Shown here: positions 33,021 through 44,709 of the stretch, one piece after another | Position numbering within the stretch: position 1 is the stretch's first letter | Layout: every line of letters starts with the position of its first letter | Source: an uncultured Candidatus Babeliaceae bacterium | GTDB lineage: Bacteria; Babelota; Babeliae; Babelales; Babelaceae | Reading direction: 5' to 3' | Assembly (NCBI GenBank): GCA_963704655.1 | Contig: OY969927.1 | Location: 192,001-256,000, forward strand | Length of the DNA stretch: 64,000 bases | The notes under the pieces: model-generated | The model's input: the letters and a program-made list of their open reading frames with translations, nothing else | What the model was told of the DNA's origin: nothing | Databases searched by the model: none | Program-made: the position numbers and the translations under genes

Positions 33021-33854
33021 ATGGTTAAAACTCGTTTAGATAAAATTGTGGGGCAGCGCTACCCGGCGCTCTCGCGATCTAAAATACAAGAACTTATTAC
33101 ACAAGGTGCCGTTACGGTGAACGGCACCATTATTACCCGATCAAATTTTTTGGTTCTTGATAGTGCAATTATCGAACTTGATACAACTTTTCTTAAATAT
33201 GTTTCTCGCGCAGGCTTAAAGCTAGAATACGCATTACAGTATTTTAACATCTCTGTTAAAGATTTAATCTGCCTTGATGCGGGGTTATCAACCGGCGGGT
33301 TCACAGACTGTTTATTACAGCATGGCGCACATAAAGTTTACGGTGTTGATGTTGGCACTGCGCAGGTTGACCAAAAAATCGCGCAAGACCCCCGCGTGGT
33401 TATCATGGAAAACACCGATATTCGTAATATTATTCCACCAATAGGCGGGAACTCCCCTCATCCGCTCACCCTGAGCGAAGTCGACGTGTCCGGCGAAGCC
33501 TTGGCGAAGACGGAAGGGTCAAAGCGGCTTCCAGAACTAGTTGATATAATCACACTCGATCTTTCATTTATCTCCATAACTAAAGTAATAGAACATGTAG
33601 CTGACTTAATAAAACCGGGCGGGATATTAATTACGCTGATTAAACCGCAATTTGAAGTGGGACGTGAAGCCGCACAAGCTGCATCTGGGGTTATTAAAGA
33701 CAGCGATCTTCAACAGGTCACGGTGCAAAGCGTTATTAAAAGTATAGAATCAGCGGGCTTTGACTATAAAAACCTCACCGAATCACCGATTCTTGGCGGG
33801 TCGGGAAATAAAGAATTTTTAGCATATTGGTGCGCTAAGCGCACTGCTTTGTAA
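33021..33854 (+). CDS. tlyA: TlyA-family rRNA methyltransferase with an in-frame repeat insertion
   Basis: S4 domain, YVSRAGLKL, DAGLSTGGFTDCLLQ, DLSFIS, LIKPQFE and GNKEFL. Confidence 0.95.
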   Translation: MVKTRLDKIVGQRYPALSRSKIQELITQGAVTVNGTIITRSNFLVLDSAIIELDTTFLKYVSRAGLKLEYALQYFNISVKDLICLDAGLSTGGFTDCLLQHGAHKVYGVDVGTAQVDQKIAQDPRVVIMENTDIRNIIPPIGGNSPHPLTLSEVDVSGEALAKTEGSKRLPELVDIITLDLSFISITKVIEHVADLIKPGGILITLIKPQFEVGREAAQAASGVIKDSDLQQVTVQSVIKSIESAGFDYKNLTESPILGGSGNKEFLAYWCAKRTAL

Positions 33855-33881
33855 AAAAATTATAAAATAGTAAGTATATAT

Positions 33882-33972
33882 GCGCCCTACTTCGCTCTTG
33901 AAGAGCTCCGAAGGGCAGGCCTGTAGCTTTCCGGACTTCAAAATAGTGAGTTTTACTCACCATCCGTAGGTT
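33882..33972 (+). pseudogene. Fragmented duplicate of the tRNA-Arg(TCG) 5' half, interrupted by family B and C repeats
   Basis: GCGCC[B]..GCCTGTAGCT..CCGGACTTC[C]..ATCCGTAGGTT matches pieces of 34023-34071. Confidence 0.7.
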
Positions 33973-34022
33973 ATCGAAAAAATAACTTTTATTTGCTAAA
34001 ATTGATACAATATATATTAAAT

Positions 34023-34099
34023 GCGCCTGTAGCTCAATTGGATAGAGTGCCGGACTTCGAATCCGTAGGTTGCAGGTTCGAGCCCTGCCAGGCGCACCA
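34023..34099 (+). tRNA. tRNA-Arg(TCG)
   Basis: GCGCCTG/CAGGCGC acceptor stem, anticodon loop CTTCGAA, GCAGG-TTCGAGC-CCTGC T-arm, CCA. Confidence 0.93.
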
Positions 34100-34182
34100 T
34101 CTTTCGCTTATCCGGGGCTTCCGCCTTGGCAAGCTACAGATGGCAGGCCAGTTTTAAAAAATAAAATATTAGTGAGTAATTC

Positions 34183-34440
34183 ATGATAGAAGAAAGAAAA
34201 CTCAAGATAGCTGAAGCTCTTAAGGACAAGGGCGTGAAATTGCCATGTCCTCGCTGTGGTGGATTAAATTTTGAAGTCGTAGATCAAACGGTGCTATCAA
34301 TTAATGATAATTTAAATGTTATAAAATTAGGTGGTCCGTCTGTACCCGCAGCTTTAGTAGCTTGCTCACATTGTGGATTTATTACATTCCATTCATTGGG
34401 AGTTTTAAATTTAATGCCCAAAGATGAGAATATACAATGA
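34183..34440 (+). CDS. Small zinc-ribbon protein (cassette 1)
   Basis: CPRC...CSHCG. Confidence 0.75.
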   Translation: MIEERKLKIAEALKDKGVKLPCPRCGGLNFEVVDQTVLSINDNLNVIKLGGPSVPAALVACSHCGFITFHSLGVLNLMPKDENIQ

Positions 34441-34721
34441 ATTCCAAAGAGCCTGAAATTCATATTAATACTGCAGGTCCTGCTAACAAAAAAAGTAAGT
34501 TTGATCCTTCTATGCATCCTGGGGTTTTGGGTAAATTTTTTGGTGCTATCGAAAATGCGACTACTAGTATTAGCGGTTTAGTCGTTATTCTATTGATTGT
34601 AATTGCAACTTTAATTACATTTGTAGAAACAAAAGTTGATGCTACTGATTATTGGAAAAGTATTGTGTTGCCGACTGTTACAGCGCTGTTCGGATATCTT
34701 TTTGGAAAGCGTCCTAAGTAA
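34437..34721 (+). CDS. Small two-TM membrane protein (cassette 1)
   Basis: ATGA overlap with the upstream gene; two hydrophobic helices; C-terminal GYLFG. Confidence 0.7.
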   Translation: MNSKEPEIHINTAGPANKKSKFDPSMHPGVLGKFFGAIENATTSISGLVVILLIVIATLITFVETKVDATDYWKSIVLPTVTALFGYLFGKRPK

Positions 34722-34722
34722 A

Positions 34723-34820
34723 TAGATTGCAGGCCTGTCCTCTGTAGCGTGGTGCGTGAAACGCACTATTTCGCGTAAGGGGATTCGAGCCCTGCCAGGC
34801 GCACCATCTTGCGCTTATCC
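34723..34820 (+). repeat. Direct repeat of the tRNA-Arg(TCG) 3' end (attR-like), split by a family B/C repeat
   Basis: TAGATTGCAGG[34734-34783]TTCGAGCCCTGCCAGGCGCACCATCTTGCGCTTATCC vs 34066-34113. Confidence 0.9.
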
Positions 34821-34822
34821 AT

Positions 34823-34872
34823 GCCGCTCACCCTGAGTGTTTTGCGAAAGCAAAATGTTTCGAAGGGCGGGA
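34823..34872. repeat. Family A palindrome variant
   Basis: CCGCTCACCCTGAG-TGTTTTGCGAAAGCAAAATG-TTTCGAAGGG. Confidence 0.75.
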
Positions 34873-34923
34873 CCCATGGTTAGGAATGAAAAATCTAAGT
34901 TCCAAGCCTAAATTCACGAAAAA

Positions 34924-35940
34924 TTGAAGGTCTTTATGGAAAAATTTACTCAAAAAATTATGATTCTATTGGCATCAATTGCCTGTCTTGTATATGCAAC
35001 AGCTGCGCCGTTACATGCAGTGGATGAAGCATCTCTTAAGAGCTTAGAAAGCAACGCTTGGAAACATGCTTATGCGGATCGAAAACATCTAGCGCTTGCA
35101 ATATTCAAAAAAGCAGCGCGTCTTGGTAGTTGGCAAGCTGCACAATTTTTGGCAAATGAGTATAATGAAGAGCATTTATTGAGTGAGTCAGATGCTGACC
35201 ACGCAGGTAAAAAATTTGCCGAATTGGCAAACACTCATGAGAAGCGATTAGATGAAAAATATCCTTTTGTTTCGTCCACACCTGTTAGCAGAAGGCATCT
35301 TCTAGAAGATCGCATTCAAAAATTGAGAGCAATACAGATTGCCCGTATAACACCATGGTACAAGGAGGTCTTGGAAGAATTTCCCAGGGCACAACAGCCA
35401 GAAACAAGTGCATTATATATTTTTAATACACTTGTTGGGTCATCTGATTCGGGCGCTGGAAAATGTAGGCGAGGGCATTTGTTTGAGATAGCCGTACCCC
35501 ACGCTTCTAGAGAAACTTTACAAGAGATATTTAAAAAAATGAAAGAGCGTCATAAGAGGTGGACTGGACATTATTCATCGTCTTTTAAAGATCACATTAA
35601 AGTGAGTCGAAGTGTAATGCGGGGATTGGATTTAGCAGCTAGAAAGAACGATGCTATTGATGAACTTAAAGATGTTTATGGAGGGGCATTTTTTTACCTT
35701 TACTATGATTGGATTTTGGGTCGCGACCAGCTGAGCGATTTTGGAGCAACCCATGATGACTTTGACGAGGAGGACATGGTTTGTGCGTTCCAGGAGTTGT
35801 ATTGTAATTATGCAAAACTAGATAAGCAAGACGCACAAGATACTATGTTTGGTATTTTGGGTTTTTATATGAAAGAAAAAGATCACAGAATTAGTGAACC
35901 TGTTTCAAAGATATTTAAATTTGTTAAAAATGGAATGTGA
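34924..35940 (+). CDS. Secreted hypothetical protein with a Sel1-like helix (cassette 2)
   Basis: Signal peptide; ALAIFKKAARLGSWQAAQFLA. Confidence 0.75.
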   Translation: MKVFMEKFTQKIMILLASIACLVYATAAPLHAVDEASLKSLESNAWKHAYADRKHLALAIFKKAARLGSWQAAQFLANEYNEEHLLSESDADHAGKKFAELANTHEKRLDEKYPFVSSTPVSRRHLLEDRIQKLRAIQIARITPWYKEVLEEFPRAQQPETSALYIFNTLVGSSDSGAGKCRRGHLFEIAVPHASRETLQEIFKKMKERHKRWTGHYSSSFKDHIKVSRSVMRGLDLAARKNDAIDELKDVYGGAFFYLYYDWILGRDQLSDFGATHDDFDEEDMVCAFQELYCNYAKLDKQDAQDTMFGILGFYMKEKDHRISEPVSKIFKFVKNGM

Positions 35941-36010
35941 AATTTCATTATATGCATGCGATACTGAAAAACCCAAAAAGAATTTTTCATAAAAATTGTC
36001 TAATAACAAC

Positions 36011-36083
36011 CAAGTTGATATTATCGTAAGTAAAGTTGCAAAATAGTGCGCGAGCGCACCAGATAGACCGATAAGGCGCACCA
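36011..36083 (+). repeat. Cassette-boundary repeat R1 (arm + family C hairpin + tRNA-like 3' end)
   Basis: CAAGTTGATATTATCGTAAGTAAAGTTGC-AAAATAGTGCGCGAGCGCACC-AGATAGACCGATAAGGCGCACCA; nearly identical to R4. Confidence 0.85.
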
Positions 36084-36118
36084 AGTTTCAAGGACGATTT
36101 TTTATAGGTTAGGGATCG

Positions 36119-36694
36119 ATGATGCAAAACATTTTCATTTTATTAGCGCTTTTGCTATGCGAATTATATTCATACGCACAACCAAATGATCGAGGGGATA
36201 GTTCGTTGCATTTGGCTGTTATGGGAAGTGGGCCAGAAGCAGTAAGAGTTGTTGCAGAATTGATTGATAATGGTGCGGACATTGAAGCGCGAAACAATTT
36301 TGGTCAAACGCCCCTATTTTACGCAAGTTTATTCTGGGAAATGGATGACTCAAAATTACAAATAATTACTAATCTTTTATTAAAGGGGGCATCGTTACAA
36401 ACAAAAATCAAAGATGAAACTTGTTTTGAGGCTCTTAAGAAAGTTTATTTATTTAAGAGCGAAGGGCAAGTTGCGGAGCTTTTATCATTCTTCAATCGAG
36501 GTGAAAAGGATTTACAAATATTTCTCTCTTTTTTAAACGAACAGAAAGAACCAGCAATAAGAAAAGATGCATATAGAGAAATTATATTGAAATATCATCC
36601 TGATAGAGAGGTAAAGTATAGAGAATTACGCAATTTTATAACCCAAAAAATAATTAATTCCTATCGGCAAGCTACAGAGGGCGATCCAGTTTAA
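36119..36694 (+). CDS. Secreted ankyrin-repeat protein with a C-terminal J-domain-like HPD segment (cassette 3)
   Basis: RGDSSLHLAV, GADIEARNNFGQTPLFYA and AYREIILKYHPDR. Confidence 0.85.
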   Translation: MMQNIFILLALLLCELYSYAQPNDRGDSSLHLAVMGSGPEAVRVVAELIDNGADIEARNNFGQTPLFYASLFWEMDDSKLQIITNLLLKGASLQTKIKDETCFEALKKVYLFKSEGQVAELLSFFNRGEKDLQIFLSFLNEQKEPAIRKDAYREIILKYHPDREVKYRELRNFITQKIINSYRQATEGDPV

Positions 36695-36712
36695 CAAACA
36701 GGATGATTTTTT

Positions 36713-37150
36713 ATGTATAAAAGTTACATCTTCGTTCTTGCAATATGCACATTCTCATATTTATTTGCAACGGATCAAACAATTAATTTAAGGCTGCTGC
36801 TTGACGGTAAAGTTCGGGGTGCGAATATGATTGAGGCGATTTGTAAGGCTTCGTCTCACTCCCCATTGGCTGCCGCAGTGAGTGAAAAGAAAACTGTTGC
36901 AGTTGCCATAAGGCTGCGAAACAATGCATTAGATATTCGTTGTTTTGACACAGCCACGCCACCAGAATATATAAGCCTTATTGGAGAATATTGTTCCGCG
37001 TACCGCTCACTTTATCTAAATAAAGATATGATTACGTTGCGCTCATCAAATTTTGATTCAGAGAATCAGCTCGTTATTATTGGTTTAGCAAATAATGGCA
37101 AAGAACTACGCCAAGTTTATTCTGAAGAAAAATATGCTGTTCAAGATTAA
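36713..37150 (+). CDS. Secreted hypothetical protein (cassette 3)
   Basis: Signal peptide; AGGA RBS. Confidence 0.65.
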   Translation: MYKSYIFVLAICTFSYLFATDQTINLRLLLDGKVRGANMIEAICKASSHSPLAAAVSEKKTVAVAIRLRNNALDIRCFDTATPPEYISLIGEYCSAYRSLYLNKDMITLRSSNFDSENQLVIIGLANNGKELRQVYSEEKYAVQD

Positions 37151-37251
37151 TCATTTATTTCTGGGCCCTCTTAATATTCGAACTTCTATAAAATTATTTT
37201 TATAAATCTTGGTAGTATGGGTTATGAATATAACAATTGCCTGATAGCGAA

Positions 37252-37305
37252 CAAGTTGATATTCTTGTAAAAGAAGTTACTAAGATAGCCCGATAGGTAG
37301 CACCA
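37252..37305 (+). repeat. Cassette-boundary repeat R2
   Basis: CAAGTTGATATTCTTGTAAAAGAAGTTACTAAGATAGCCCGATAGGTAGCACCA, followed by a family B palindrome to 37369. Confidence 0.8.
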
Positions 37306-37582
37306 TATTGCGCTCTTTTAGAGCTACCTTCTTGCACTAAAGTTGCAAAGGACAGGCAGATGGCAGGCCATCCTCTTGTTTTCCAATCAAGTTACGAAAA
37401 TTTTGCACGAATAGAGAGGAACCAGGTGTCAGAATGGCAATTTACCTACATGGGGAATATTCTTGAGTACATGCATATTGGAAAATCAACAAATTTTTGT
37501 TCTTTACTCCTTGTTTATATAATCCAATTGTTATAAACTTTATAAGTTCATTTTTGTATAAACCCTTTATTCTAGGTTAAAC

Positions 37583-38245
37583 ATGAAAAAACTTATGTTC
37601 TTAATGACATTCGTAATGGTATCAAACTCTCTGGTAGGAATGGCGTATCTTACCCTTGCCACAGGAGAGCCAGTGAGCCTTGAACAACCAGATGGTACTG
37701 AATTTTCAGCGGTTGACATCTCACTCATGTTTGAATCCCATGCAAAACGTGTGTATGAAAATTTTCATGTTGACGCTGCGGTGCTAAGAAATACAAAATT
37801 TTTGGTGTCTTCTCATAAAGACTTCGCCCAGGTAGAGAAAGTTGACGATGGGAGAGCTTGGTTTTTTAAGCAAGCTGGGGAACTCGTACGATTGGTGAGA
37901 GGAAAAGATGGTTCTAATTATGTGGTACTTTCGCCAGCGATGTTAACTTGGTATGATGCGGGTCATTTTAATCATAATAATAGTACCGTGAGCTATAATG
38001 CATTCTATCTTTTTGAATTGTTGTCTGTTGCGCGAGGATGTACATTTGCCGATGAAGAGTTTGGCGGGCCAGATTATCTGGCAAAAAGATATAAGTTTGC
38101 AGTAGAAAGGTTTTCTTCTGAAGGCCTTAAGGGATTGCAAGAAAGCTTTGAGAGTAGCAAGGAGATAGTTTCTGGTTATCAGGGCGTGCCTGAACTGCTT
38201 GCTCAAGAGCTGGCAAAGCGCAGGATGTCAGCCGATAAAGAATAA
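37583..38245 (+). CDS. Secreted hypothetical protein (cassette 4)
   Basis: MKKLMFLMTFVMVSNSLVG-M signal peptide. Confidence 0.75.
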   Translation: MKKLMFLMTFVMVSNSLVGMAYLTLATGEPVSLEQPDGTEFSAVDISLMFESHAKRVYENFHVDAAVLRNTKFLVSSHKDFAQVEKVDDGRAWFFKQAGELVRLVRGKDGSNYVVLSPAMLTWYDAGHFNHNNSTVSYNAFYLFELLSVARGCTFADEEFGGPDYLAKRYKFAVERFSSEGLKGLQESFESSKEIVSGYQGVPELLAQELAKRRMSADKE

Positions 38246-38412
38246 AGGGAATTATTATGGATCATCTACCATTGTACCTATAAAAAACCATTTAAACTTC
38301 AGCTTTTTCATATTTTTTAAATCTATGCCACAGATGAACGTAACGAGCTTAAGGTATTCGGTATGGCTGCGAGCAGCTGACGGATAGCGTAGATTGTGCT
38401 ACTATCTATAGA

Positions 38413-38445
38413 GAAGTTGCGACAATAGCCCGATAGAGTGCACCA
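38413..38445 (+). repeat. Cassette-boundary repeat R3 (shorter match)
   Basis: GAAGTTGCGACAATAGCCCGATAGAGTGCACCA, followed by a family B palindrome to 38475. Confidence 0.75.
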
Positions 38446-38542
38446 TACTTCGCCAAGGCTTCGTATGGCGAGCCAGCCTTTTTACGGAATGACAGGCAAA
38501 TCATAGTTCTTTGTTTTTTTGAAAATTCTGAGGAAAATAATT

Positions 38543-38917
38543 ATGAAACAATTTTTTCTTTTTCTTGCGATTATGCCAATTGCATTGCTAGCCATGGAGC
38601 CAAATAATCATGCCTCTCTCGGACTAGTTGAGCATTTTGCTATAATGCTCAGTGCAGGTAGTCAATACACCGAGCGCACATTGGATAATTTAAAATCAAA
38701 ACGCTTGGAAAGTCTCGCTGAGATGAAACAAAAGCAAGCAATACCAAAAATTATAAATCAATTAGAAACATGTGCTGAAAATGATAAGCTAAAAAGCCGG
38801 GTGCAATGCCAAGTAGTTTATGATTGGTTCATTTCAGAGCTTCGAGCCCAAGGATATTTTACAAATGTACCTGTGGGTGGGGAATTTACTCAAAAAGTAA
38901 TGGAAGCCATTGAATAA
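38543..38917 (+). CDS. Secreted hypothetical protein (cassette 5)
   Basis: GAGG RBS; MKQFFLFLAIMPIALLA-MEP signal peptide. Confidence 0.7.
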   Translation: MKQFFLFLAIMPIALLAMEPNNHASLGLVEHFAIMLSAGSQYTERTLDNLKSKRLESLAEMKQKQAIPKIINQLETCAENDKLKSRVQCQVVYDWFISELRAQGYFTNVPVGGEFTQKVMEAIE

Positions 38918-39057
38918 TTTGCTTAGATTTACTTACCCTTATTAATAAAAATTGGCGAGAGCCAGAGTACAAACTTCAAAAACGTGGGCTAAATTTAAAG
39001 TTTTTTTCAAGCTTGAATGGCTTTTAAGCCGTTAATAGAAATTGTTTAATTGCAAGT

Positions 39058-39129
39058 AAGTTGATATTATCATAAGTAAAGTTGCAAAATAGTGCGCGAG
39101 CGCACCAGATAACCCGATAGGGTGCACCA
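39058..39129 (+). repeat. Cassette-boundary repeat R4
   Basis: AAGTTGATATTATCATAAGTAAAGTTGC-AAAATAGTGCGCGAGCGCACC-AGATAACCCGATAGGGTGCACCA, followed by a family B-like hairpin to 39163. Confidence 0.85.
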
Positions 39130-39293
39130 GTCATTTCCTTTCAGGGGAAATGCCTGGCAGGCCAGTCTCTTTAATCAACAAATTTTATATAAAAAAATTG
39201 AAAATTACGCGCCCGTAGCTTCCACCTTCGTTAAAACTATGGTGGACAGGCAGTTGTTTAAAATAAAATCTTGAATACTATAGTATTTATAGC

Positions 39294-39370
39294 GCGCCCG
39301 TAGCTCAGTAGGATAGAGCGACAGTTTCCTAAACTGTAGGCCACTGGTTCGAGCCCTGCCAGGCGCACCA
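39294..39370 (+). pseudogene. Chimeric tRNA-Arg: CCT 5' part joined to the TCG 3' end
   Basis: First 59 nt match 41428-41370 (2 mismatches); 3' end GGTTCGAGCCCTGCCAGGCGCACCA is identical to tRNA-Arg(TCG); mispairs in the T and acceptor stems. Confidence 0.85.
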
Positions 39371-39545
39371 GGCTTCGCTCTTACGAGCTTCGCCTGGCAT
39401 GCCAATTTCTTAAATGACTTTTTTTGGAACAGTAAACTTGAGATAATTAAAGCGAAGACTGTCCGGCGTAGCTTCTTTTTTATATAAATTTTTTATGAAC
39501 TATTCAGCGAAGCCTGGACTAATTTAAAAAAATAAAGTGATTTCT

Positions 39546-39788
39546 ATGTATTGTGTGTATATCCTTCGTTCAATTAATTTCCCGGACCAATTATATGTTG
39601 GCTGTACAACAAACTTGAAAAAGCGTTTATCTGACCATAATTGTGGTACGACGTCCCATACTGATAAATTTAAGCCATGGGAATTGGTAATGTATTTGGC
39701 ATTTAATAGCAAAGAAAAGGCTGTTGAATTTGAAAAATATCTAAAATCACATTCAGGTAGGGCCTTTAGAGATAAGAGACTTTTATGA
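39546..39788 (+). CDS. Solo GIY-YIG nuclease family protein
   Basis: YCVYILRS...LYVGCTTNLKKRLSDHN...TDKFKPWELV...EKYLKS. Confidence 0.92.
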   Translation: MYCVYILRSINFPDQLYVGCTTNLKKRLSDHNCGTTSHTDKFKPWELVMYLAFNSKEKAVEFEKYLKSHSGRAFRDKRLL

Positions 39789-39818
39789 TTCAATGCTCAT
39801 AGTCCGTCAAGAAAGTAT

Positions 39819-40655
39819 CTATCTCTTTACATCTAAAATATAACGATCTACGGGTTTTACTCGAACAAAACCAACCTCTTCATAAAGTTTTACCCCGCTA
39901 TGGGTTGCTTCCAATATAGTGCGCGGGATTTGTAAGGCTGCAGCACGGGCTACAAGTGTTGCAAGCATTTTGGTCGCTAAACCCTTATTGCGTGCATGCT
40001 CAAGAGTCGTGACATCTTTAATTTTTGCATACTCTGAAGTGCACAACAGACCTCCTGTTGTCACTAACGCACCATCTTGATAAATTCCATATAATTCGTT
40101 GCGTGCACCTGCTGGCATATCATCTATGCTGTTTTCCATACTAATGCGCAATGCATCCACAAGTTGCAGGTTTTTCACTCCATAATTTGTATAAACAACA
40201 TTTAACCAGGTACGTACTTCTTGTTTTGTAATAGGCACAACATCTTGATCTGCGGTTTTTTGAGCACCTTGATAGAGCATGAGCATTAAGGGAAGATGTC
40301 TAAATCCTGCGCTTTTTAAATGCGCAATTAATGCAGCATGTTTTTTATCGTCAGCACGCCAGTGGATTGGCACATTATGCTTGCGCACATAAGCAGTCAC
40401 TTGCGCAATATCTTGTTCCATCTGTTTAGGAGTAGACTGATCATAGCGCGTTATGATGTTTTGCCCGTTTGGCGGTACTCCAGGTTTCCACCAGGTCATA
40501 TGATCACGTTCATCTCGGGTTAGATGTGACTGCTGTTGAAGGGCATCATCAAAAGACTGGTTATTATACAATTCAGCCAACTCAAACTCGTTGCTATGCG
40601 CAAAGTGAATTGTTAACATGGTCATGAGAATCACGGTAATTCTTTTTAAAAGCAT
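39819..40655 (-). CDS. GNAT acetyltransferase with a signal peptide
   Basis: VTTLEHARNKGLAT and LEATHSGVKLYEEVGF. Confidence 0.82.
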   Translation of the reverse strand: MLLKRITVILMTMLTIHFAHSNEFELAELYNNQSFDDALQQQSHLTRDERDHMTWWKPGVPPNGQNIITRYDQSTPKQMEQDIAQVTAYVRKHNVPIHWRADDKKHAALIAHLKSAGFRHLPLMLMLYQGAQKTADQDVVPITKQEVRTWLNVVYTNYGVKNLQLVDALRISMENSIDDMPAGARNELYGIYQDGALVTTGGLLCTSEYAKIKDVTTLEHARNKGLATKMLATLVARAAALQIPRTILEATHSGVKLYEEVGFVRVKPVDRYILDVKR

Positions 40656-40774
40656 TCTTTACCTTTTTTTCTCAATGATAGATGAAATTTTATGTGTATA
40701 ATGTTGTATTCATATTGTATTTGAAGAGTAATTCAAATAACAAGTAATTGTTTAATTCTAAACTATTTTAATTA

Positions 40775-41299
40775 TCAGTATATGTATTCGCCAACTGCAC
40801 TACCTATAGAGTAACCTATGTGATAGCTGTATTGGCCAAGTGCTGTATGGCCCATGTAGTACCCTAAGCGGTAGGCTGAATATAAAAGAACTGCCCCTCC
40901 TATACATTTAATAAGTGGCCGTTCCCATTTTATATTACATGTATGTCTGCTAATTTGTTGTTGGATCTCAAGATACAATTGATCAGCTTTTATATCTTTG
41001 AGTTTCGTATAGTTAATTATCAATGAATTGCCATCCGAATGCATATTAAGTCGTATTGCTTCTGGACCATTTAATACGAGTACGATTGTAGGTACAGCGA
41101 CATTTTTTTGGTCACATTGATCAGTAATTATTTTATATAAGTGTGGGGCATGAGCATTATTTATTGTTATCTGAGTATCGTTTTGGCCAAACAATGCCTC
41201 AAGAGATTGTATTTCATCTAGAAGTTTTGAGGGCATAGAGAAGCTCTGAAATGGAAAAATGGATGATAACAAAATAAGCAGTTTAAGGACGGTTTTCAA
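40775..41299 (-). CDS. Secreted/membrane hypothetical protein
   Basis: TTG start, signal peptide, C-terminal hydrophobic segment. Confidence 0.65.
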   Translation of the reverse strand: MKTVLKLLILLSSIFPFQSFSMPSKLLDEIQSLEALFGQNDTQITINNAHAPHLYKIITDQCDQKNVAVPTIVLVLNGPEAIRLNMHSDGNSLIINYTKLKDIKADQLYLEIQQQISRHTCNIKWERPLIKCIGGAVLLYSAYRLGYYMGHTALGQYSYHIGYSIGSAVGEYIY

Positions 41300-41351
41300 T
41301 AAATTTCCTAGTTAAGGGGTGTAAAAAAGACTTTTATGTAGTAGCAAAGAC

Positions 41352-41428
41352 TGGTGCGCCCGACTGGAATCGAACCAGTGGCCTACAGTTTAGGAAACTG
41401 TCGCTCTATCCGGCTGAGCTACGGGCGC
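41352..41428 (-). tRNA. tRNA-Arg(CCT), intact
   Basis: GCGCCCG/CGGGCGC, anticodon loop TTCCTAA, ACTGG-TTCGATT-CCAGT, CCA. Confidence 0.95.
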
Positions 41429-41466
41429 AGTATTTCTTTTATATAGAGTATATTATACTTATAGTT

Positions 41467-42390
41467 ATGGAAAAAGAAAAAAAATATATCTGTCTTGGCA
41501 GTTCTGCCGCTTCACTTTCATGTGCGCATCACATAAAAAGGCTCGAGCCACAAGCTCAAGTTACACTTTTAACCGCTCAGCATGAATTGCCTAATAACAC
41601 GTGTCTTTTAGCTGATTATGTTGCTGGCAATCGCAGTAAAGAGTCTTTATATTTGCCGATTCCAGAAGGTGTTGATGTTCACTATAATGCAGAAGTTGAG
41701 TTAGTGGATGTTAAATTAAAAAAAATTATCACATGTGATGGCAAAGAATTTTTTTACGATAAACTTTTTATTGGCACGGGTTTAAAGCCGCGTGTTCCAG
41801 TAATCTTTTTGCCTGAATTATATAAAAAGGTTTTTCCCTATAAAACATTAGATGATATTGTCAGATTTGAACAAGTACATATTTCTGGCAAAAATGTTTT
41901 AGTGGTTGGTGGTGGAGTAACCGGCGTAGAAGCTGCGCATGCGCTTACTATTTCTGGTTATCAGGTAACATTAGTTGAAAAAAGTTTACAATTATTACCC
42001 AAATTTAATCAGGCAGCGTCGCAAGAGATTTATGAACTTTTGCAAACAAGCGGCGTAATGGTGAAATTAAATTATCAGGTTTCTTTTGATGATATTAATC
42101 AATTTGATGCCCTATTTTTAGCCACTGGCGGCGTGCCGGTTACTGATTTTATTAAAAATCAGCTAGAACTAGAAAATGGATTTATTGTTGTTGATGAAGA
42201 TCAAAGAACTTCAAGTGAAGATATATTTGCTGGCGGTGATGTGTGTTTAGGGCGAGTGCTTTGGCCACAGGCTGTTAAAGATGGGGTTGTTGCAGCGTAT
42301 AGTATTTTAAATAAGCCCGTACCAAATTTTAAATCGATACCGTATAAGACGGTTATGCGCATATTTAATGTTACGCATATTTTGTCATGA
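41467..42390 (+). CDS. FAD/NAD(P)-dependent pyridine nucleotide oxidoreductase
   Basis: YDKLFIGTG, VVGGGVTGVEAA and TSSEDIFAGGD. Confidence 0.85.
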   Translation: MEKEKKYICLGSSAASLSCAHHIKRLEPQAQVTLLTAQHELPNNTCLLADYVAGNRSKESLYLPIPEGVDVHYNAEVELVDVKLKKIITCDGKEFFYDKLFIGTGLKPRVPVIFLPELYKKVFPYKTLDDIVRFEQVHISGKNVLVVGGGVTGVEAAHALTISGYQVTLVEKSLQLLPKFNQAASQEIYELLQTSGVMVKLNYQVSFDDINQFDALFLATGGVPVTDFIKNQLELENGFIVVDEDQRTSSEDIFAGGDVCLGRVLWPQAVKDGVVAAYSILNKPVPNFKSIPYKTVMRIFNVTHILS

Positions 42391-43266: not shown

Positions 43267-44709
43267 GTGGTTAACCAGATTTGGCAGGAATTTTTAAAGA
43301 TTGCGCGTGAAGAGGCAGGGAGCCCGGTTGTAGAGACCTGGTTTAAGGCCGTTTCGTGCCTTTCGTGGGATTATTCCAAAAAGACCATTTATTTAAAAGC
43401 TCCAAATCAGTTTGTTAAAGAGTGGATTATAAAAAATTATACTCATCTTTTACATAACCATCTGAGTCGTCTTCTAAATGAAGAGTCGGTTCATGTGCAA
43501 TTTGTTGATCAGATGCCACAAGCAGAAGAGATAAAAAAACATAATCCTCAACCACAGATTATTCCCGCTCATGTTATACCCGGTATGCAACCCATTTCGA
43601 TGTCTGTGGCTACGGGCCATTCGCGACATGATCTGGTAAAAAGCTCAATGCGTACCACAGTAGCACGTGTTGATAAAGCGCAAGTTCGCCCTGGACTCAA
43701 TGAAACACACACCTTTGATACCTTTGTGGTAGGGCCGAGCAACTCGCTTGCCTACGCCGCTGCTATGGCTGTAGCTGAAAAGCCGGGAATGTTATATAAC
43801 CCGTTTTTTATGTATGGACCATCAGGATTAGGTAAAACGCATTTACTCCACGCAATTGGCCAGAGTATAAAAAAAGAAAATAAAAAAGCGATTATAGTAT
43901 ATCAGACTGCAGATCGTTTTGTGCAAGAATTTATCCATGCTATTCGTTTTAATAAAACACATCTTTTTGAGGCAAAATATAAAAATATCGATGTTCTTTT
44001 AATGGACGATATCCAATTTATTTCTCATAAAGAACAGACACAAGAAGCATTTTTCCATATTTTTAATACACTGCATCAGGCACAAAAACAGATTGTTTGC
44101 ACCAGTGATGCATTGCCCGGTGACATTGTTGGTTTAGCTGCTCGGATGCGTTCCCGCTTAGAATGGGGCCTTGTGGCAGATATTTCTATGCCTACGCTAG
44201 AAACGAAAATTGCAATTGTTAAAAAAAAGGCTGAAATTCATCATGAACCGATTTCAGATGATATTGCTGAACGTATAGCACGTTCAGTAACCTCAAGTAT
44301 TCGTGAACTTGAGGGCGCTCTTATTCGCGTTCTTGCTTGTGCATCATTAACACGACAACCTATAACACAAGAGCTTGTTGATAATGTGCTTTTTAAAAAT
44401 AGCTCACACCAGGCGCGTCAGCAAATAGATTTACCAAAAGTCGTTCGTTCTGTGATGAGTTATTTTAATGTATCACTTGCAGAATTGCGTTCTGAAAAGC
44501 GGGACAAAGAGATTTCCCATGCGCGCCATATGGCCTTTTATTTAATGAAAAAGCATACTGGCAAATCTCTTAAAGAGATCGGTGCTTTTCTAGCGCGTAA
44601 AGATCATTCTACCGTATTGCACGCCTATGAAAAGATTAATCTTATTCGTCAAAACGACGTTCAACTTCAACATGCATTGCAAGAGCTAGAGCGCACATTA
44701 CAAAGCTAA
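43267..44709 (+). CDS. dnaA: Chromosomal replication initiator protein
   Basis: FDTFVVGPSN, YNPFFMYGPSGLGKTHL, DDIQF, QEAFFHIFN, SRLEWGL and KDHSTVLHA. Confidence 0.98.
   Translation: MVNQIWQEFLKIAREEAGSPVVETWFKAVSCLSWDYSKKTIYLKAPNQFVKEWIIKNYTHLLHNHLSRLLNEESVHVQFVDQMPQAEEIKKHNPQPQIIPAHVIPGMQPISMSVATGHSRHDLVKSSMRTTVARVDKAQVRPGLNETHTFDTFVVGPSNSLAYAAAMAVAEKPGMLYNPFFMYGPSGLGKTHLLHAIGQSIKKENKKAIIVYQTADRFVQEFIHAIRFNKTHLFEAKYKNIDVLLMDDIQFISHKEQTQEAFFHIFNTLHQAQKQIVCTSDALPGDIVGLAARMRSRLEWGLVADISMPTLETKIAIVKKKAEIHHEPISDDIAERIARSVTSSIRELEGALIRVLACASLTRQPITQELVDNVLFKNSSHQARQQIDLPKVVRSVMSYFNVSLAELRSEKRDKEISHARHMAFYLMKKHTGKSLKEIGAFLARKDHSTVLHAYEKINLIRQNDVQLQHALQELERTLQS

Follow-up and report, generated by a model that had tools for sequence, protein, structure and literature searches.

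A hybrid tRNA-Arg gene that switches between two isoacceptors in its T-loop, in a rearranged interval of a Babeliaceae genome

Results

A tRNA-Arg gene that changes isoacceptor in the T-loop

We analysed a 64,000-nucleotide (nt) stretch of the genome of an uncultured Candidatus Babeliaceae bacterium (assembly GCA_963704655.1, contig OY969927.1, positions 192,001 to 256,000), here called the window, which contains a hybrid arginine transfer RNA (tRNA) gene with the anticodon CCT. The order of genes leading up to the hybrid is HtrA, TlyA, an intact tRNA-Arg(TCG), and about 5.2 kb of small open reading frames (ORFs) with an ankyrin-repeat protein. Past it come a small GIY-YIG nuclease gene (+), a GNAT gene (−), an ORF without family match (−), an intact tRNA-Arg(CCT) (−), TrxB (+), a further ORF without family match and DnaA (+). 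ARAGORN called five tRNA genes in the window, three of them for arginine. These were compared pairwise by alignment and BLAST and scored with the Rfam tRNA model.

Over its first 59 positions the hybrid matches the intact CCT gene (41428–41370) at 57, and the only mismatches up to that point are D-loop positions 16–17, which read TA in the hybrid and CC in the intact copy. From 39346 onwards, GGTTCGA through CCA, it is identical at all 25 positions to the 3' end of the TCG gene (34075–34099). The GGTTCGA block (39346–39352) is common to both parents and thus defines a crossover interval of 7 nt. An earlier note on this DNA, made from the letters alone, had claimed both the CCT-like front with a switch to a TCG 3' end within GGTTCGA and three resulting mispairs; the first was borne out by alignment and BLAST, the second by the ARAGORN cloverleaf. 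The acceptor stem falls short of seven pairs, with C6 and A67 unpaired, and two of the five T-stem pairs are broken (A49/C65 and T51/T63).

The Rfam model scored the hybrid at 55.2 bits, the intact CCT gene at 71.5 and the TCG gene at 69.9. The hybrid passes the gathering score of 29 but lies 16 bits under the intact copy, and it ranks 36th among the 39 tRNA matches of the genome, the three below it being long-arm Leu genes and the next above it a long-arm Tyr gene. As a tRNA gene it is probably impaired or dead. Neither a reciprocal hybrid nor an orphan CCT 3' fragment was found in the genome by BLAST. When the window was searched for the 25-mer from GGTTCGA to CCA with up to three mismatches, there were three sites (34075, 34782 with one mismatch, and 39346), compared with 0 expected from 100 shuffles. 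The two perfect 25-nt direct repeats bracket a 5.27-kb stretch, 34100–39370.

The intact CCT gene is presumably the working gene for AGG. It looks like a short secondary copy of about 96 nt, leaderless and with its trailer truncated: only the first 14 nt of that trailer resemble the longer trailers behind the hybrid and tRNA-Cys, with 10 of the 14 identical to the hybrid's. The hybrid and the intact copy form an inverted repeat with arms of 96 nt (39289–39384 and 41338–41433) that are 86% complementary, lie 1953 nt apart and contain the 57/59 core, which makes them slightly longer than the 59-bp inverted repeat around about 2 kb first described. The genes said to lie between the arms were confirmed by a Pfam scan as a GIY-YIG and a GNAT gene, with the third ORF giving no family match. 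Of 260 other genomes in the order, 1 has a counterpart of the GNAT gene, and this genome has one paralog.

The source genome is a single contig of 1,298,077 bp with 38% G+C, 39 tRNA genes and a transfer-messenger RNA (tmRNA) gene. Three CAT genes aside, Arg(CCT) is its sole pair of genes with the same anticodon. The hybrid has unique flanks on both sides, and both parent genes are also present with flanks of their own. Evidence from public sequencing runs consists of assembled contigs; the matching runs listed are all of DNA and none of RNA, and the best contains 18% of the sampled words. A 151-nt contig from run X2 corresponds to 39285–39435 with 0 differences, and so reaches from 9 nt upstream of the hybrid, across all of it, to 65 nt into its trailer. 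This contig speaks against the misassembly between the two Arg genes of which the earlier note had warned, and on the sequences in hand we consider a misassembly of the hybrid unlikely. A 30-mer across the hybrid junction had 0 matches in the metagenome contigs searched.

Table 1. Features of the hybrid tRNA-Arg locus, in window coordinates.
Feature	Position	Strand	Basis or remark
Hybrid tRNA-Arg, anticodon CCT (5' part CCT type, 3' end TCG type)	39294..39370	+	ARAGORN, alignment; 55.2 bits
CCT-derived part of hybrid	39294..39352	+	As in the CCT gene of congener G003; 57/59 to intact copy
TCG-derived 3' end of hybrid	39346..39370	+	25/25 to TCG gene; third direct copy of that segment
Palindromic trailer of hybrid	39371..39520	+	Trailer family behind many tRNA genes of the genome
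Small GIY-YIG nuclease gene, 83 aa	39537..39788	+	PF01541, E 5e-18, residues 4–75
GNAT-domain protein, 278 aa	39819..40655	−	Pfam scan; rare accessory gene
ORF without family match, 174 aa	40775..41299	−	
Truncated trailer of intact CCT copy	41338..41351	−	14 nt
Intact tRNA-Arg(CCT), D-loop variant CC	41352..41428	−	ARAGORN; 71.5 bits; no leader stub, trailer only 14 nt
Intact tRNA-Arg(TCG)	34023..34099	+	ARAGORN; 69.9 bits; 34075–34099 is direct-repeat copy 1
Degenerate pseudo-tRNA(TCG)	34727..34806	+	Repeat search
Variable array between TCG gene and hybrid	34100..39293	+	Small ORFs, ankyrin-repeat protein, four modules
Four array modules	35986–36083, 37230–37305, 38397–38445, 39032–39129	+	Each ..CCCGATAGnnnGCACCA plus trailer hairpin
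5' stub, first 12 nt of CCT-type tRNA (C at position 6), hairpin TCCACC..GGTGGA	39208..39255	+	39 nt upstream of hybrid
Pseudo-tRNA(TCG) cut up by short hairpin inserts	33881..33975	+	Upstream of the real TCG gene
Trailer examples in the window	34100–34155, 39130–39171, 39371–39411, 16021		

The same locus in relatives

In 10 of 22 CCT loci of relatives (L002–L023) a TCG gene lies upstream within 1.5 kb on the same strand, so a TCG-then-CCT tandem on one strand is likely the old, ancestral state. Three congeners gave a match, and all of them have just one CCT gene. In G003, the closest congener compared, the order is TlyA, TCG(+), 28 kb, CCT(+), TrxB, DnaA, and the CCT gene combines the front of the hybrid with the tail of the intact copy. 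G003 also carries one array module (positions 8613–8674 of locus L033), 1.75 kb upstream of its CCT gene and on the same strand. Taken together, the gene order of G003, the identity of the CCT front and the placement of the module argue that the hybrid stands at the resident CCT position. It would therefore occupy the ancestral place of that gene: downstream of TCG, on the same strand and at the end of the variable array.

The other congeners differ in the arrangement of this interval. Relative to the tlyA and dnaA flanks, the whole segment from TCG to CCT is inverted in G001 and G002 compared with G000 and G003 (L031; L034–L036). In G002 the acceptor stem, which is of CCT type, and some 80 nt of trailer are common to the TCG and CCT genes. 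As judged from these comparisons, the TCG and CCT genes recombine repeatedly, and the interval has been rebuilt in each of the species examined in this genus. They support the earlier note where it reads the hybrid as the trace of recombination between two Arg isoacceptor genes, CCT and TCG, with the switch in the T-loop.

Three further observations concern the same genes. G002 has a tandem duplicate of a tRNA 5' stub upstream of its TCG gene, and the G001 assembly breaks inside these tRNA repeats. Metagenome locus L134 has adjacent TCG and CCT genes (2661–2873) with identical T-arms (GCAGG TTCGAGT CCTGC), which would represent homogenisation on both sides, in a functional form, where the hybrid has it on one side only. 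On the dnaA side, identity to G003 is only 54% for TrxB (41467–42390) and 84% for DnaA (43267–44709), so the variable zone, which stops just upstream of dnaA, may extend to the likely origin region.

Contigs of a relative in run X3

Run X3 contains a relative, at similar depth throughout. One of its contigs (8273 nt) aligns to 39346–39788 at 94% identity with 25 differences, and so spans the trailer and the nuclease gene. The start of this alignment coincides exactly with the hybrid junction and lies well inside the contig, not at its end. Because it stops there, the tRNA front in that contig would not be CCT-like, and we infer a TCG gene in its place. A second contig (2155 nt) has a CCT gene with at most one difference to the intact copy described here, followed by a full trailer. 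A joint between opposite strands in this run, at 39385/41343, was considered as a sign of inversion and rejected, as it corresponds to the relative's normal CCT gene followed by this full trailer. Deleting 34075–39345 (equivalently 34100–39370) from the present genome would recreate the order TCG gene, trailer and nuclease gene.

The differences between the X3 contig and the window are unevenly spread. None is listed across the ~156-nt noncoding trailer (39376–39531) and at least 20 fall in the nuclease ORF (39537–39788), which points to a strongly constrained trailer or to a recent exchange whose end lies near 39532.

Palindromic trailers and a tRNA-linked GIY-YIG gene

In the trailer of the hybrid, CCAGGCTTCGCT (39368–39379) pairs with AGCGAAGCCTGG (39506–39517). 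Similar structures are frequent in this genome: 23 of the 40 tRNA and tmRNA genes have a palindromic trailer that starts exactly from the CCA and ends TGG-CAGGCCAG, a motif found in only 124 of 4000 random 80-nt windows. In their common plan a distal arm pairs with CCA plus 3–9 nt, and TGG-CAGGCCAG and a T-rich run come after it; three sequence types can be told apart. No Rfam family matched the trailers at gathering score.

The GIY-YIG protein encoded behind the trailer is a single catalytic domain in which Pfam shows no DNA-binding domain. Its nearest solved relatives among Protein Data Bank (PDB) matches are Slx1 and UPF0213, and NCBIfam gave no family for it. The closest relative of this block in the genome and metagenome contigs searched has 78% amino-acid identity. 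Homologs are linked to tRNA genes. Of 80 genome loci (L037–L116), 68 have a tRNA or tmRNA gene on the same strand no more than 400 nt upstream, and so do 51 of the 60 metagenome loci (from L132–L211) with sufficient upstream DNA. At least 14 tRNA species are represented, although many of the loci are from related Bradyrhizobium with tRNA-Ala(GGC) and are not independent. A paralog in this genome (genome positions 1291162–1291386) follows tRNA-Glu, and Glu-linked copies are conserved in other genera of the family. We found no description of a linkage between small GIY-YIG nucleases and tRNA genes in the literature covered, which excludes subscription journals.

We also considered whether the nuclease gene travels as a cassette bracketed by tRNA-end repeats, and rejected this. 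Of the 68 loci where a tRNA lies upstream, 1 has a tRNA 3' repeat of at least 12 nt after the gene and 0 has a 5' stub of at least 12 nt. With one such locus in 68, recent mobility of the gene appears to be without support.

tRNA debris and recombinases around the hybrid

The array between the TCG gene and the hybrid is rich in tRNA-derived sequence. Its four modules have ..CCCGATAGnnnGCACCA/trailer hairpin ends listed at 36061, 37283, 38423 and 39107. Each combines a promoter-like block of 54 nt with a pseudo tRNA 3' end (..CCCGATAGnnnGCACCA) and a trailer hairpin, and is followed by a cargo ORF. The ORFs of the array, like those enclosed by the inverted repeat, have no homolog in the congener regions compared, with about 6 kb of the 28-kb interval of G003 outside the comparison; nor do these regions share with one another any ORF lying between the TCG and CCT genes. 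Near the start of the array, the last 25 nt (34782–34806) of the degenerate pseudo-tRNA(TCG) differ by one from the TCG 3' end and form the second direct-repeat copy, and the next 14 nt match the TCG trailer at 97%. The 5' stub just upstream of the hybrid carries the C6 of the CCT type, in line with a hybrid at the ancestral CCT position, and the same stub architecture recurs upstream of the TCG gene in L134. The second pseudo-tRNA(TCG), ahead of the real gene, has a counterpart in G001 with a compensatory change in a hairpin stem (GTGAG/CTCAC vs GCGAGT/ACTCGC). A scan of 33850–41600 for promoters and terminators gave 20 promoter-like sites vs 25.1 expected and 8 terminator-like sites vs 6.3 expected, which is evidence neither way.

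An agent of the integrase type, as implied by the earlier note, was not found. Pfam detected no recombinase domain in 16 ORFs between 31289 and 45764, including the eight ORFs from the TCG gene to the hybrid and the three genes beyond the hybrid, and thus none between 34100 and 41350. The locus lies at 226–233 kb of the genome. Two tyrosine recombinases (PF00589) are encoded at ~389 kb and ~530 kb, each more than 150 kb away and the second Xer-like, and a single serine recombinase (PF00239) at 841 kb, about 600 kb away. RecA is encoded in the genome. The serine recombinase match (genome positions 840799–841251, minus strand) lies in a 504-aa open frame about 1 kb from tRNA-Arg(TCT) (839729–839805), and may be part of an integrated element.

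Discussion

Origin of the hybrid

We put at about an even chance the explanation that the hybrid is a recombination scar, in which a single crossover in GGTTCGA joined the resident CCT gene to a trailer and nuclease block linked to a TCG gene. The ancestral layout would have been TlyA, tRNA-Arg(TCG), variable DNA and tRNA-Arg(CCT), in this order towards dnaA, and the two tRNA genes would have shared a strand. One crossover inside the 7 nt common to both T-loops would have retained 52–59 nt from the start of the resident CCT gene, together with the leader stub of that gene. Joined to this would be a block whose start lies in a TCG gene's T-loop and which comprises the TCG 3' end, the palindromic trailer and the small GIY-YIG gene. 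Such a crossover may have deleted the DNA between direct copies, or it may have involved DNA from a related strain, with its other anchor in conserved flanking genes. The product, with its three mispairs, would probably be a poor or dead tRNA, and decoding of AGG would be maintained by the intact CCT copy on the opposite strand. In this account the route by a single crossover, the direction of events and the loss of function are the parts that we infer from sequence comparison.

Several observations weigh against a crossover scar. In two more distant metagenome contigs, L134 and L139, the nuclease gene stands behind a normal CCT gene with the same type of trailer, so the trailer and nuclease could have been native to the CCT gene all along, with only 9–25 nt converted. 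The first 14 nt of the hybrid's trailer agree with the trailer of the intact CCT copy at the 10 positions noted above and with that of the genome's own TCG gene at only 8. The two CCT fronts differ in the D-loop (TA vs CC), and either copy may be the immigrant. The TCG identity of the tRNA front in the X3 contig is read from the point where the alignment stops, its 5' part never having been seen. Finally, run X2 is perhaps from the same sampling campaign as the assembly, and the support that it gives to the hybrid may not be independent.

The first two of these points also count in favour of the next best explanation, short-patch gene conversion, which we regard as possible but on the whole unlikely. 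Here the resident CCT gene would always have had this trailer and nuclease gene, and a patch of 9–25 nt would have been copied into it from the TCG gene or from the pseudo-copy at 34782–34806, without exchange of flanks. The gene orders of L134 (stub, TCG, CCT, same trailer type, GIY-YIG) and L139 (CCT, trailer, GIY-YIG) fit this directly. The five bases at which the hybrid's tail departs from the CCT type all fall within 39353–39361, with identical sequence around them, and conversion between TCG and CCT genes does occur, as the identical T-arms of L134 and the common acceptor stem and trailer of G002 indicate. However, the X3 contig aligns from the junction on and not over the CCT front, which fits a TCG gene ahead of the block. 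In addition, a conversion that replaced one strand of two stems without the partner strand must be either very recent or tolerated.

Site-specific integration by a tRNA-targeting integrase is less probable still. The 25-nt repeats would then be attL and attR of one or two islands in tRNA-Arg(TCG), with the hybrid as attR. In favour of this are the perfect direct repeats at 34075–34099 and 39346–39370, the third copy at 34782–34806 (24/25), and the switch in the T-loop, which Williams is said to have described in 2002 as a usual sublocation of integrase crossovers in tRNA genes. Partial tRNA copies at island ends, and later inversions, are likewise described in PMC9897764. Against it, no recombinase domain was found in the ORFs between the TCG gene and the hybrid or in the three genes beyond it, and the recombinases of the genome are distant. 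Moreover, the supposed island end is a CCT front at the ancestral CCT place with its own leader stub, and therefore attP itself would have had to be a hybrid tRNA.

The arms of the inverted repeat, with their 57/59-bp core, could recombine, RecA being present. A working invertible 2-kb segment, a switch whose flipping exchanges the 3' ends of the two copies, is nonetheless very improbable. Its arms are long and well matched, and larger inversions of the locus distinguish congeners, but no invertase gene lies in or beside the segment, which holds the GIY-YIG gene, the GNAT gene and the ORF without family match alone. Either orientation would yield one intact and one hybrid gene, and therefore no obvious phenotype would be switched. 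An assembly artefact fusing reads from both Arg genes is barely credible: GGTTCGA and other short blocks are common to the two genes and the G001 assembly breaks at such repeats, but the hybrid and its parents each have their own flanks, the X2 contig crosses the entire hybrid without a difference and the genome was assembled as one contig.

The 'second Arg(CCT) gene' reported by a tRNA finder is a recombination scar, and the genome probably has one sound gene for AGG. As a crossover scar the hybrid would mark a breakpoint in the tlyA–dnaA interval to within 7 nt, and could serve as a natural marker of how small genomes of the intracellular type acquire accessory genes and rearrange them with no resident integrase. 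The trailers, and the position of the small GIY-YIG family behind tRNA genes across phyla, outweigh the scar itself in interest.

Comparison with known systems

The hybrid is a real, clean case of a known kind of scar. Hybrid tRNA pseudogenes occur at rearrangement endpoints in plastid genomes. There, as here, a short common block joins parts of two tRNA genes, a front and a tail, and marks a rearrangement. The difference is that the present case involves two isoacceptors for one amino acid, on a bacterial chromosome near dnaA, where an intact duplicate covers the loss.

There is also a likeness to islands in tRNA genes (attL/attR, Islander-type), for which PMC9897764 describes partial tRNA copies at insertion sites that were later inverted. 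In both, direct repeats of a tRNA 3' segment bracket variable, acquired-looking DNA, the switch lies in the T-loop, the product is called as an extra tRNA gene by tRNA finders, and copies come to lie on opposite strands after later inversions. Unlike those islands, the present locus has no integrase gene in the 16 ORFs scanned, and at its far end, instead of a bare fragment, stands a copy joined in register with the front of another isoacceptor gene, at that gene's ancestral place.

Two kinds of GIY-YIG nuclease invite comparison with the gene behind the hybrid. The first is SegB, presented in PMC13096335 as a free-standing GIY-YIG homing endonuclease in the tRNA gene cluster of phage T4, and so likewise a GIY-YIG gene embedded among tRNA genes. 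Breaks at such a place could lead to co-conversion of tRNA sequence nearby, or to its recombination over short matches. In contrast to SegB, the protein described here has 83 residues, lacks a DNA-binding domain and is chromosomal, and a flanking tRNA-end repeat was found at 1 of 68 loci. The second kind is Ssn (cd10448), small single-domain GIY-YIG nucleases for single-strand DNA with NTS/SRM hairpin repeats, as set out in PMC11893778. The likeness is in the small single-domain protein and in a gene bracketed by hairpin repeats that are scattered genome-wide. The differences are that the SRM pattern is unenriched here, that the nearest solved relatives are Slx1 and UPF0213, and that the word 'tRNA' occurs 0 times in the main text of PMC11893778. 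A reading of the trailers as Ssn-type repeats had been considered, as the trailer GTCATTT..AAATGCCTGG resembled the NTS repeat, and was rejected, the published SRM pattern missing the trailers. That pattern had 4 matches in the genome vs a mean of 1.0 in 10 first-order Markov simulations, with 0 in the window and none near a tRNA gene.

The hybrid might be the footprint of an undescribed system at tRNA 3' ends, made up of trailers that start exactly from the CCA of most tRNA genes and a tiny GIY-YIG gene carried behind tRNA genes; we offer this tentatively and think it rather unlikely. If it were true, breaks at the trailers would drive the swapping of 3' ends, the growth of the array of pseudo-tRNA, trailer and cargo, and the inversions beside dnaA, and the T-loop junction would be the edge of a repair (co-conversion) tract and not a chance crossover. 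Trailers and nuclease acting together in this way would amount to testable, nuclease-driven recombination at tRNA ends.

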